Below the pieces are notes generated by a model. That model ran no database searches. It had not been told where the DNA came from and saw only the letters and a list, made by a program, of their open reading frames with translations. A stretch of DNA of 64,000 nucleotides, taken from Polyangiales bacterium. GTDB taxonomy: Bacteria; Myxococcota_A; Polyangia; Polyangiales; Polyangiaceae. Below are positions 1 through 1,498 of the stretch, in pieces; positions within the stretch are counted from its first letter, which is position 1; every line of letters starts with the position of its first letter. Made by a program: the position numbers and the translations under genes. The stretch spans positions 1 through 64,000 of the forward strand of contig JBBRLQ010000027.1 in assembly GCA_038231275.1 (NCBI GenBank), read 5' to 3'.

Positions 1-130
1 AGAGACGACCTACTCTCCCGACCCGAGGCCACAACCCTGAACTGACCCCGAGAGAAGACGTCGCTTCGCTCCGATCGCCATCCGGCGTGCTGGGTGATCG
101 CGATGCGCCGAATTACCCGATCGCCATCGG

Positions 131-169
131 CGGGACGCGCACGCAGGTTCGAATCCTGCCGCCTAGACC
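131..169 (+). pseudogene. Orphan tRNA 3' half (tRNA-Pro-like)
   Basis: Perfect T-arm GCAGG-TTCGAAT-CCTGC (143-159), then CGCCTAG-A-CC (G72/A73 as in tRNA-Pro), preceded by CGG-GA. No matching 5' acceptor strand within 1-130. Confidence 0.5.
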
Positions 170-186
170 GAGAGCACACGACCCGC

Positions 187-259
187 GCGGTGCTCGTGCT
201 CTGGTGAGCACACCTGCTCGACAAGCAGGACCAGGCAGGTTCGATCCCTGCGCGCCGCA
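187..259 (+). tRNA. tRNA-Val(GAC), atypical (C33)
   Basis: Acceptor GCGGTGC/GCGCCGC-A, D-stem GTGC/GCAC, anticodon arm CCTGC-TCGACAA-GCAGG, T-arm GCAGG-TTCGATC-CCTGC. No encoded CCA. Confidence 0.85.
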
Positions 260-274
260 CTGCATTTTCGATAC

Positions 275-350
275 GCCGATGTAGCCCAACTGGCAGAGGC
301 CGCAGTTTCAGAAACTGTGTGGAGTGAGGGTTCGAATCCCTTCGTCGGTA
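275..350 (+). tRNA. tRNA-Leu(CAG) with short variable region
   Basis: Acceptor GCCGATG/CGTCGGT-A, anticodon arm GCAGT-TTCAGAA-ACTGT, 7-nt variable region, T-arm GAGGG-TTCGAAT-CCCTT. Confidence 0.85.
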
Positions 351-384
351 CCGCGCTCACGAGCGCGACACGTCACGCCTCCCT

Positions 385-468
385 GCCACTGTGGTGGAAC
401 GGCATACACGACAGGCTGAGAACCTGTGCTCCATCAGGAGTGTGAGGGTTCGAGTCCCTCCGGTGGCA
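385..468 (+). tRNA. tRNA-Leu(GAG)
   Basis: Acceptor GCCACTG/CGGTGGC-A, anticodon arm ACAGG-CTGAGAA-CCTGT, long variable arm GCTCC-ATCA-GGAGT, T-arm GAGGG-TTCGAGT-CCCTC. Confidence 0.93.
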
Positions 469-518
469 CTGATTTTTTTCGAAAGGAGCTTTCAACCAAC
501 AACCCAGTGAGATCCGTC

Positions 519-1025
519 ATGCGAACCCTGCTGCTCATGCCGTGGATGACCCCCCACAAAATCGTCTCTTGGCAACGCGCTGTCGTGCTCGTCGTCCTCG
601 GCAAGGCCGAGATCCTCGAGGAGTATGACGTGGCGCTCGGCCCCGTCGTCGACTTCAAGACGCCGTCGGTCGTGCGCCTCACCAAGGGGCACCCGATGCA
701 GAAGCGCGCGGTTCGCTTCTCGCGCCTCAACGTCTTCACCCGCGACGGCTTTCGCTGCCAGTACTGCGGCGTGAAGAAGGAGATGCGTGAGCTCAACTAC
801 GACCACGTGCTGCCGCGCGTTCGCGGTGGAAAGACCGAGTGGGAGAACATCGCCACCTCCTGCTACGGCTGCAACGATCGAAAGGGGAGCCGCACCCCAG
901 AGGAGGCCGGAATGAAGCTTCTCCGGAAGCCCTTCAAGCCGAAGTCCCTCCCGCTCACGCCTGCGTTTCACGTCGACGCGTCCGCGATCCCTCCCGCCTG
1001 GCATCCGTTCTGCCAGGTGGGGTGA
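519..1025 (+). CDS. HNH endonuclease (McrA/HNH_5-like) with PLMP-like N-terminus, 168 aa
   Basis: Motif RDGFRCQYCG...DHVLPRVRGG...N...SCYGCNDRKG. Start moved to ATG 519 (GTG 507 possible) because the track start overlaps tRNA-Leu. Confidence 0.9.
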   Translation: MRTLLLMPWMTPHKIVSWQRAVVLVVLGKAEILEEYDVALGPVVDFKTPSVVRLTKGHPMQKRAVRFSRLNVFTRDGFRCQYCGVKKEMRELNYDHVLPRVRGGKTEWENIATSCYGCNDRKGSRTPEEAGMKLLRKPFKPKSLPLTPAFHVDASAIPPAWHPFCQVG

Positions 1026-1073
1026 GCCGTCCGGACGCGCGCGTGCGCGAGCGTGATTCCCCACGCGGCCTCC

Positions 1074-1105
1074 GCCGTCCTGGCCCGAGACGCTAAACCG
1101 GGCCG
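1074..1105 (+). ncRNA. Putative H-type pseudoknot element downstream of the HNH gene
   Basis: CGTC(1076-79)/GACG(1089-92) and GGCCCG(1082-87)/CGGGCC(1099-1104) interleave, with an A-rich loop CTAAAC. Confidence 0.45.
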
Positions 1106-1131
1106 CTTACTTTTTCGTTTCAGTAGATTCG

Positions 1132-1176
1132 TTCGAACGAAACATGAGCCGAGGCTCGACTCACGTTTCGTTTGAA
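1132..1176. repeat. 17-bp imperfect inverted repeat with 11-nt spacer
   Basis: TTCGAACGAAACATGAG ... CTCACGTTTCGTTTGAA (2 mismatches, one a G-U pair), in AT-rich sequence. Confidence 0.75.
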
Positions 1177-1188
1177 TAGATCGCTTTT

Positions 1189-1275
1189 GGAAGACGAACT
1201 GGCCGAGCGGCCGGGCCTGTCTCGAAAACAGTGCGTGCCTCCGGGCATGGGGATCAAGACCTCCGGCTTCCGCCA
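1189..1275 (+). tRNA. tRNA-Ser(CGA), 8/4 fold, CCA encoded
   Basis: 8-bp acceptor GGAAGACG/CGGCTTCC (1 mismatch), G73, 6-bp D-stem CTGGCC/GGCCGG, loop CT-CGA-AA, V-arm GTGCC-TCCG-GGCAT, 4-bp T-stem with aberrant loop ATCAAGA. Confidence 0.8.
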
Positions 1276-1279
1276 ACCA

Positions 1280-1363
1280 GGAAACCGAGCCACGCGCGGG
1301 CGTGGGCCTGGCCGCTACCCAGCGCGTGCCTTCGGGCATGAAGTTCGACTCTTCCGGTTTCCG
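1280..1363 (+). tRNA. tRNA-Ser(GCT), 8/4 fold, C33
   Basis: 8-bp acceptor GGAAACCG/CGGTTTCC, G73, 6-bp D-stem CCACGC/GCGTGG, loop CC-GCT-AC, V-arm GTGCC-TTCG-GGCAT, T-arm GAAG-TTCGACT-CTTC. Confidence 0.82.
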
Positions 1364-1407
1364 CTCTTCTTCCGCTCTCCGTCGTTGGTGCCGAGTTTTC
1401 TCCTCCT

Positions 1408-1489
1408 GGGTCGGAGGCAGATACGGTTGGCTGCGCGTGTCCGTAAAACACGTCCTTTCCCGGTGGGGGTTCGAATCCCTCCCGACCCA
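1408..1489 (+). tRNA. tRNA-Tyr(GTA), atypical (A8, C33)
   Basis: Acceptor GGGTCGG/CCGACCC-A, D-stem GCAG/CTGC, anticodon arm CGTGT-CCGTAAA-ACACG, T-arm GGGGG-TTCGAAT-CCCTC. Confidence 0.85.
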
Positions 1490-1498
1490 CAGAGAACG

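Follow-up and report, generated by a model that had tools for sequence, protein, structure and literature searches.

A long array of diverged tRNA genes with an embedded HNH endonuclease gene in a Polyangiaceae-like myxobacterium

Organization of the locus

The window analysed here is a stretch of 64,000 nt from a Polyangiales bacterium (GenBank assembly GCA_038231275.1; source genome G000) that begins at base 1, the very start, of contig JBBRLQ010000027.1 (C27), and positions given without a contig name are window positions. Its first 1490 nt hold part of a dense array of tRNA genes into which a gene for an HNH endonuclease is set. Six complete tRNA genes and the 3′ part of a seventh lie on the + strand; the HNH gene is intact and stands between tRNA-Leu(GAG) and tRNA-Ser(CGA), and structured DNA, in the form of two hairpins, follows it. 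An earlier note, made by a model from the letters of the window, had proposed this arrangement, and it is borne out by ARAGORN, Rfam, folding, conservation in relatives and the rejoined tRNA-Pro(CGG) gene described below. The array is a second, strongly diverged tRNA set that the genome carries beside its housekeeping set. The features are as follows.

1–141, no strand assigned: right end of a multicopy repeat resembling an insertion sequence (IS), closing ...GGGACGCGCA at 141 (BLAST)
142–169, + strand: 3′ part of tRNA-Pro(CGG), comprising the T arm and the 3′ strand of the acceptor (joining of the flanks with contig C12)
187–260, + strand: tRNA-Val(GAC) with C33 (ARAGORN default and RF00005, 43.9 bits)
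275–352, + strand: tRNA-Leu(CAG), 78 nt, class-I-like, with a short unpaired variable region (ARAGORN default and RF00005, 46.1 bits)
385–469, + strand: tRNA-Leu(GAG), canonical class II (ARAGORN default and RF00005, 54.8 bits)
519–1025, + strand: HNH endonuclease gene, 168 aa (PF14279, PF01844)
1081–1116, + strand: hairpin then U-run, terminator-like, 3′ of the HNH stop codon (fold)
1122–1185, + strand: imperfect hairpin, 64 nt (fold)
1189–1276, + strand: tRNA-Ser(CGA), 8/4 type (own cloverleaf fold; missed by ARAGORN default and RF00005)
1280–1366, + strand: tRNA-Ser(GCU), 8/4 type, with C33 (ARAGORN -ps90, called at 1280–1364; missed by ARAGORN default and RF00005)
1408–1490, + strand: tRNA-Tyr(GUA), closing the array; C33, A8, variable region of 11 unpaired nt (ARAGORN default and RF00005, 44.2 bits)
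1499–2884, − strand: gene for a MatE-family transporter, convergent (PF01554, 3.4e-44)

The four + strand tRNAs found by both ARAGORN with default settings and Rfam family RF00005 are Val-GAC, Leu-CAG, Leu-GAG and Tyr-GTA. A feature-by-feature check agrees with the earlier note that five of the six complete tRNAs are noncanonical, Leu-GAG being the exception. A uridine at position 33 (U33) is near-universal in tRNAs; three of the window genes encode cytidine there instead (C33). The two serine tRNAs share an 8/4 branch, i.e. an 8-bp acceptor stem and a 4-bp T stem, to which Ser-CGA adds an A6·G67 mismatch and a T-loop of sequence ATCAAGA, and Ser-GCT adds C33.

The hairpin at 1081–1116 (−12.4 kcal/mol, z = −1.9) is kept in sequence in two relatives, G001 (same genus) and G015 (same family). 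It was not called by a consensus terminator scan, which returned a single, unrelated terminator-like site in positions 1–1700, on the − strand. The hairpin at 1122–1185 is more stable (−28.3 kcal/mol, z = −4.1; equal folding in 0 of 200 shuffles), and no second copy of it was found elsewhere in the genome. In G001 a tRNA-Pro(GGG) gene takes its place, as seen by alignment and by ARAGORN on the corresponding locus (L090). Hits to other Rfam families in a permissive scan of positions 1–1700 (mascRNA, bxd_2 and plastid elements) lay far below gathering scores and were set aside as chance or tRNA-like echoes.

Probable continuation of the array across a contig break

The expectation that the array continues beyond position 1 is supported by the 3′ end of contig C12, which carries 20 same-strand tRNA genes by ARAGORN with default settings and 24 by relaxed settings or Rfam. 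These 24 genes occupy 2.4 kb (C12:226768–229169), or C12:226768–229247 when the 5′ part of tRNA-Pro(CGG) is included. The contig terminates in the 5′ two-thirds of this last gene, followed by the end of a repeat. When the repeat and one copy of a flanking 6-bp sequence are removed by script, ARAGORN with default settings calls a tRNA-Pro(CGG) of 77 nt. The 6-bp sequence, CGCAGG, forms the last six bases before the repeat on C12 and recurs at 142–147 of the window, and its presence on both flanks is as expected for a target-site duplication.

Window positions 1–141 repeat, in inverted orientation and at ~80% identity, the sequence with which C12 ends, and BLAST finds 80–83% identity over 70–142 to the ends of contigs C2, C12, C13, C33, C37 and C72. 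The alignment of the terminal inverted repeats is good for ~70 bases from the start but poor thereafter (79 of 116 columns in total), and the repeats contain repeated motifs. Sequencing depth in the probable source run is 81–118 at positions 1–162 against ~9 elsewhere, a roughly tenfold excess. The repeat may be an IS21-type insertion sequence; the 47-aa start of an ORF at its other end, the only part of the ORF that is assembled, has a weak match to NF033546 (IS21 transposase; E 0.008, 15.7 bits, far under the cut-off). The repeat interior and further right ends were not found in the assembly, where the copy on contig C3 is a solo end. We infer that the IS-like repeat split tRNA-Pro(CGG) and thereby broke the assembly between C12 and C27. 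Relative G015 keeps the gene order of the joined array: Gly-GCC, Met, Gln-TTG, Val-CAC, Ile-GAT, Pro-CGG, Val-GAC, Leu-CAG, HNH, Ser-CGA and Tyr.

With this putative junction, the joined array would comprise ~31 same-strand tRNA genes for 19 amino acids in ~3.8 kb, or ~8 genes per kb; no tRNA-His was found in it. Long tRNA arrays (L-arrays) are defined (PMC4758250) by at least 20 tRNA genes at a density of at least two per kb, and both the joined array and its C12 part alone exceed these values. Gaps within the array are mostly 1–160 nt, the HNH gene excepted, and the single orientation and spacing fit co-transcription. Hairpin-plus-U-run sites are also present inside the array, and more than one transcript is therefore possible.

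Several further elements accompany the array on C12, where coordinates are also given for locus L009. The first array tRNA is preceded, at a distance of ~130 nt, by a run of hexamer repeats (GACTCC/GACCCC; L009:14530–14640, equivalent to C12:226529–226639). The near-palindrome CTCGATTTCGAG occurs twice, once in an A+T-rich stretch upstream of the array (L009:14188–14202) and once between Gln-CTG and Thr-CGT (L009:15197–15212), just ahead of a hairpin with a run of 11 T. The two copies and this hairpin may serve as operator and terminator sites. At L009:15010–15037, part of the 3′ end of the adjacent tRNA-Lys(CTT) is duplicated.

Array and housekeeping tRNAs

The array tRNAs diverge strongly from the remaining tRNAs of the genome. 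In a whole-genome Infernal search the 43 non-array tRNAs score 53–77 bits (median 65.1, determined by hand), whereas 23 array tRNAs score 29–68 bits (median 52.8), with several under the family cut-off. Higher-scoring housekeeping copies exist elsewhere for all six window isoacceptors and for Pro-CGG, and identity between array and housekeeping isoacceptors is 50–76%. Hallmark positions tell the same story: U33, a TTC T-loop and the D-loop GG are each present in 43/43 housekeeping tRNAs, but in 21/24, 19/24 and 19/24 array genes, respectively. Among same-family genomes, five without the HNH gene have 43–47 tRNA hits and five with it have 48–72; the source genome has 66 above the cut-off. The array tRNAs do mostly lack an encoded CCA, as the earlier note had observed, but this is no mark of the array. 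We rejected it as a hallmark because housekeeping genes mostly lack CCA too (encoded in 9/43 housekeeping and 5/24 array genes).

In the course of these searches 19 of 86 ARAGORN calls in the G+C-rich source genome (75–99 nt, e.g. C1:499951–500043 and C15:61285–61377) had no RF00005 match at E ≤ 0.01, and are probably false for the most part. They include C13:9961–10057, called as tRNA-SeC (compared with RF00005 only), and the sole non-array ‘tRNA-Trp’.

Conservation of the unusual tRNA architectures

The minimum-energy fold of Ser-CGA is a cloverleaf with an 8-bp acceptor stem containing the single A·G mismatch, a 6-bp D stem closed by a GAGC tetraloop, a 5-bp variable stem, a 4-bp T stem, G73 and an encoded CCA. 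Ser-GCT likewise has an 8-bp acceptor, a 4-bp T stem (ARAGORN -ps90) and G73; its minimum-energy fold differs from the cloverleaf, which in this case rests on ARAGORN and covariation. Both genes are kept in G001 and in the same-family genomes G015 and G007, and alignment with these three relatives reveals that the acceptor, anticodon and T stems of both have changed in a compensatory way. In G007 the anticodon is GGA where the window has Ser-CGA, which still specifies serine. The eighth acceptor pair, between nucleotide 8 and the base 5′ of the 7-nt acceptor strand, forms in 27/27 Ser tRNAs of this and related arrays, as G:C or A:T with one G:T. Four T-stem pairs follow, and an alternative 7/5 arrangement is possible in 2/27. 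Among the housekeeping Ser tRNAs, three are 7/5 with U8, and the fourth was misregistered by the script. Judged by these sequence features, the array Ser tRNAs are of the published (8/4) tRNA-Ser type.

C33 and short leucine tRNAs are similarly persistent. Among 652 array tRNAs from 47 related loci, 82 have C33, compared with 0/43 housekeeping tRNAs, although the raw counts overstate independence because the Sorangium genomes are close kin. All 13 array Val-GAC sequences in the list (12 of them distinct) have C33 despite their widely differing stems, while housekeeping Val-GAC has U33; C33 is also found in 13/19 array Pro-GGG and 13/33 array Gly-GCC. The review PMC7609411 gave no match for C33. 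Leu tRNAs of at most 80 nt are found in 32 of 43 Leu-bearing related loci, and also in the Anabaena array and two phages discussed below; housekeeping Leu tRNAs measure 82–87 nt. Taken together, the compensatory changes, the eighth acceptor pair and the conservation of C33 show conserved architectures, which suggests that selection keeps the odd tRNAs. Related arrays hold further oddities: L020:2309–2381 and L023:2222–2294 each encode a tRNA whose UUA anticodon would decode the stop codon UAA (ARAGORN ‘tRNA-Stop’), and the anticodons His-AUG, Ser-ACU, Ile-UAU, Gly-ACC, Arg-GCG and Leu-AAG also occur.

It is possible that these shapes are kept because they resist attack. C33, the altered T-loops, the 8/4 branch and the short variable arm would make poor substrates for toxins that cut or modify tRNAs, whether made by competitors or kin, by prophages or by the cell's defence systems, and the array would then form a toxin-proof reserve that lets translation continue while the housekeeping pool is attacked. 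The deviations are conserved rather than random, as the counts of C33 in Val-GAC, Pro-GGG and Gly-GCC and its absence from the housekeeping tRNAs show, and phages carry homologous modules of an HNH gene plus Leu tRNAs. Phage tRNAs are proposed to escape anticodon nucleases through changes in the anticodon loop (PMC10264068), and mycobacterial tRNA array units are described as a putative anti-defence system (PMC12803027). However, no tRNA-targeting toxin was identified in a search confined to 10 flanking ORFs. Moreover C33, frequent in the myxobacterial arrays, is found in 0/24 tRNAs of the Anabaena array; since U33 is present in all 24 of these, C33 is no general property of such arrays. We therefore treat toxin evasion as a tentative possibility and lean against it. 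It overlaps with the explanation favoured below and differs from it in what selects the odd shapes.

A contrasting possibility is that the array represents the nonfunctional remains of a phage tRNA cluster, in which the noncanonical members are pseudogenes and the HNH gene a selfish leftover. The low Infernal scores, with several array tRNAs under the family cut-off, would be expected of a decaying relic, as would the disruption of Pro-CGG by the IS-like repeat, the loss of Pro-GGG relative to G001, the acceptor mismatch in Ser-CGA and the partial Lys-CTT 3′ duplicate on C12. Decay would not readily account for stems that are kept paired by compensatory substitutions over large sequence distances, for a gene order kept between genera, or for an HNH ORF that is intact among the matches listed and invariant in its catalytic residues. 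We consider this explanation very unlikely.

The HNH protein

The HNH ORF matches the profiles PF14279 (4.5e-15) and PF01844 (2.2e-13). Its CxxC...DH...N...CxxCN motif is intact, and in an alignment of 34 homologues the catalytic and zinc residues C80, C83, D95, H96, N110, C115, C118 and N119 do not vary. An AF2 model (pLDDT 86.6) gives structure matches confined to the HNH domain; the solved structures matched are HNH domains of Cas9 and IscB, together with the nicking endonuclease Gme (4H9D). In a Foldseek search of the PDB nothing matched residues 1–65, a beta-rich domain at the N terminus, and the 168-aa protein has no detectable RuvC or RNA-binding domain. In sequence and predicted fold, the protein thus matches only HNH domains that cut DNA. 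A second, diverged HNH-like stretch is present in the source genome at C1:504219–504396, with 69% nucleotide identity to window 709–886.

These matches bear on the idea, raised by a gene so tightly and persistently embedded among tRNA genes, that the protein is directed at RNA and binds or cuts the array transcripts, in a processing role or as a nuclease guided by RNA. Its best domain sequence matches are indeed to the RNA-guided nucleases IscB and Cas9. Yet the match is limited to the HNH domain of ~60–90 residues, which is the DNA-cutting module of those enzymes; the protein is small and lacks a detectable RuvC or RNA-binding domain, and many members of its family have no tRNA nearby. An RNA-directed role is, in our judgement, highly improbable.

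Linkage, phylogeny and distribution of the HNH gene

Two questions arise for the module as a whole: (i) is the association of the HNH gene with tRNA arrays recurrent and (ii) has the module been inherited or acquired. For the first, we surveyed the 80 best genomic loci with an HNH homologue. The 49 closest (L010–L058; 49–69% identity) are nearly all labelled Myxococcota or ‘delta proteobacterium’, apart from L020, which is labelled Acidobacteriota. At least two same-strand tRNAs, and up to 32, are present at 49/49 of these loci, compared with 5/31 more distant ones, so that the recurrent association anticipated in the earlier note holds, with the Anabaena homologue as a further case. The HNH gene keeps one place throughout the clade, preceded by Leu tRNAs and followed by Pro, Ser or Tyr tRNAs: the tRNA directly upstream is Leu in 33/46 loci and the next downstream is Pro in 17/32. 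In all 16 Sorangium chromosome loci fetched, the gene lies behind 9–13 same-strand tRNAs.

For the second question, we built an HNH tree of 89 rows by a quick method, with SH-aLRT as its sole support measure. The array-linked HNHs of sampled Myxococcota form one clade (56 rows, 55 array-linked; SH-aLRT 92) with Sorangium and Sandaracinaceae subclades. The array label changes 4 times on the tree, compared with 25.8 times in shuffles; the placement of rows outside the Myxococcota clade is unsure because their branches are long. A search of 151 genomes of the order (E ≤ 1e-30) recovered the HNH gene from 108, a tally that includes one unpublished genome (G120), and no internal stops were seen among the matches listed. 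With this query it was not found in 16 of 34 same-family genomes. From these patterns the module looks old and apparently vertically inherited across the myxobacterial order.

This distribution is difficult to reconcile with the earlier proposal that the module is accessory and probably horizontally moved, or with a stronger form of it in which array and HNH gene were recently acquired as an island and the HNH protein is an active homing endonuclease that moves the array. Several observations do suit an import: the low identity of the array to the housekeeping isoacceptors, the same-family genomes in which the HNH gene was not found, the related modules in phages and on plasmids, the Acidobacteriota-labelled L020 inside the Polyangiaceae clade and the horizontal spread of L-arrays reported in PMC8421152. 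Against these stand the single HNH clade with family-level subclades that follow taxonomy, the constant place of the gene within the array, its regular occurrence behind same-strand tRNAs in Sorangium and its presence in most genomes of the order, and no integrase, transfer, phage or mobility genes were found among the 10 flanking ORFs. Recent import is therefore unlikely, and the earlier proposal of mobility is not supported.

Other homologues illustrate the wider family. L020, a Candidatus Sulfotelmatobacter record, has its HNH gene beside four long Leu tRNAs, and reflects either transfer to another phylum or a misbinned contig. In four metagenome-assembled genomes of Pseudomonadota or Bdellovibrionota (L077, L079, L083 and L088), distant homologues lie ~300–550 nt from an opposite-strand Ile-GAT/Ala-TGC pair; these two are the usual spacer tRNAs of rRNA operons. 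On plasmid pREB6 of Acaryochloris marina (L101, 73440–73937), a homologue with no tRNA within 3.5 kb adjoins genes for a plasmid-borne methionyl-tRNA synthetase and a YlxR-family protein.

Relationship to known tRNA arrays

Long tRNA arrays with a linked HNH gene are a known class, as described in PMC8421152 and PMC5966550, and the suggestion that the window holds a spare tRNA array of the Anabaena and mycobacterial kind is upheld, the window isoacceptors having housekeeping copies. In the supplement to PMC8421152, Sorangium So ce56 is listed with arrays of at most eight genes; locus L041 of this cultivable strain, Sorangium cellulosum So ce56, holds the homologous HNH gene and array. The same paper cites T4 SegB as an adjacent endonuclease in a phage tRNA cluster. 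Outside subscription papers, we found no literature linking tRNA arrays with Sorangium or myxobacteria, and none pairing ‘long variable arm’ with tRNA arrays.

The closest parallel is the trn operon of Anabaena PCC 7120 (PMC8421152; also PMC4758250 and PMC5966550). On plasmid pCC7120delta, a gene annotated as HNH endonuclease at NC_003273.1 52432–52815, which from its position we take to be all8564, is 40.2% identical to the window protein over residues 16–141 (tblastn, E 3e-20) and is followed by 24 tRNA genes. Both systems have more than 20 dense same-strand tRNAs, supernumerary diverged isodecoders, a homologous HNH gene and short-armed Leu tRNAs. They differ in that (i) the HNH gene lies upstream of the array in Anabaena but inside it, behind the Leu tRNAs, in the myxobacteria; (ii) the cyanobacterial operon is plasmid-borne and sporadic, whereas the myxobacterial module is chromosomal and apparently vertical across the order and (iii) rtcB and dpsA, neighbours of the cyanobacterial operon, were not seen among the 10 ORFs flanking the myxobacterial array. 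The same 10 ORFs contain none of the rtcB, TROVE/Ro60 or RNA-repair genes for which the earlier note had suggested searching the neighbourhood.

The (8/4) tRNA-Ser type is known from tRNA gene clusters of phages and proteobacteria, according to Mukai et al. (PMC5389517), who describe it together with allo-tRNAs. The window genes share with the form described there the 8-bp acceptor, the 4-bp T stem, the long D stem with a tetraloop, the long variable arm, G73 and serine anticodons. Unlike that form, they occur as a tandem pair that follows an HNH gene directly, within a chromosomal array conserved in Polyangia, and one carries C33 and the other a T-loop with A54. In Myxococcus phage Mx1 and virus Rctr197k, Leu tRNAs with short arms stand directly ahead of a homologous HNH gene (42–43% identity). 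The phage clusters are smaller (4 and 11 tRNAs), however, and their HNHs fall outside the Myxococcota array clade on long branches.

Sequence comparison suggests that the myxobacterial module differs from the published picture of L-arrays in three respects: (i) it is old and apparently vertical within the order, (ii) the HNH gene is fixed inside the array and (iii) the noncanonical features are conserved. The sporadic horizontal spread described for L-arrays contrasts with the single Myxococcota clade formed by the array-linked HNHs and with the wide presence of the HNH gene in the order, although the patchy occurrence of the HNH gene within the family should be kept in mind.

Proposed function of the module

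By analogy with the stress-induced trn operon of Anabaena, and from the conservation described above, we consider it likely that the module is a functional spare-tRNA long array with a resident HNH gene that is retained as a DNA nuclease, in a Polyangiaceae-like myxobacterium. In this model, the array tRNAs would be functional and would form an alternative pool expressed apart from the housekeeping genes. The HNH protein, as its predicted fold suggests, would be a DNA nicking or cutting enzyme, co-expressed with the array; we do not infer an RNA nuclease. Its gene probably began as a homing-type element beside a tRNA-Leu gene and would now be a retained resident, where its product may promote recombination within the array.

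A bolder version of this model supposes that Polyangia possess an ancient, vertically inherited ‘shadow’ tRNA set in which C33, the 8/4 Ser tRNAs and the short-arm Leu tRNAs are adaptations to toxin attack, and for which a domesticated HNH protein has become required, for example in gene conversion or turnover. We regard this version as speculative and rather doubtful.

Several observations weigh against the favoured model of a functional spare array. The C12–C27 junction is inferred, because no contig or read spans the repeat. Redundancy of the whole array is not fully shown, because Infernal supports no further copy of Trp-CCA or Ile-GAT elsewhere in this 94%-complete assembly. Some decay appears to be going on, since Ser-CGA has its mismatch and A54 T-loop, Pro-GGG has been lost where G001 keeps it, and Pro-CGG is disrupted. 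A sigma-70 consensus scan of positions 1–1700 found no promoter. The HNH family also extends beyond tRNA arrays: of the eight plasmid or phage homologues sampled, five lack a tRNA within 3.5 kb. Finally, RNA cover reaches the HNH genes of relatives only. Contigs from the RNA-labelled runs X20 (a soil metatranscriptome) and X12 (cDNA-labelled) cover parts of window 433–1134, and come from relatives because their identity is only 85–95%. Their cover is limited to the HNH ORF and its 3′ flank, and the uncovered tRNA parts are uninformative. They give a weak hint that the HNH genes of these relatives are transcribed, with DNA carry-over also possible. Elsewhere among the sequencing runs, the window stretch is contained in the probable source run only, and the others share at most 0.16 of sampled words; the X1 joints (sides of 20–24 bases) were read as tRNA genes of other organisms and set aside.

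So far, long tRNA arrays have been regarded as sporadic, spread by horizontal transfer and largely cryptic, with functional data from one cyanobacterium only. That the same kind of module appears to be a stable feature of an order of soil myxobacteria, including the cultivable Sorangium, would provide a second, genetically tractable system. It raises the questions of what role spare tRNA sets play, why a nuclease gene is kept inside them and whether the C33, 8/4 and short-armed tRNAs decode. On the practical side, default tRNA finders miss part of such arrays.

Flanking genes

The convergent MatE-family gene at 1499–2884 is the downstream border of the array and lies outside the module. The 10 flanking ORFs that were scanned encode two-component, MFS, MatE and FAD monooxygenase proteins.

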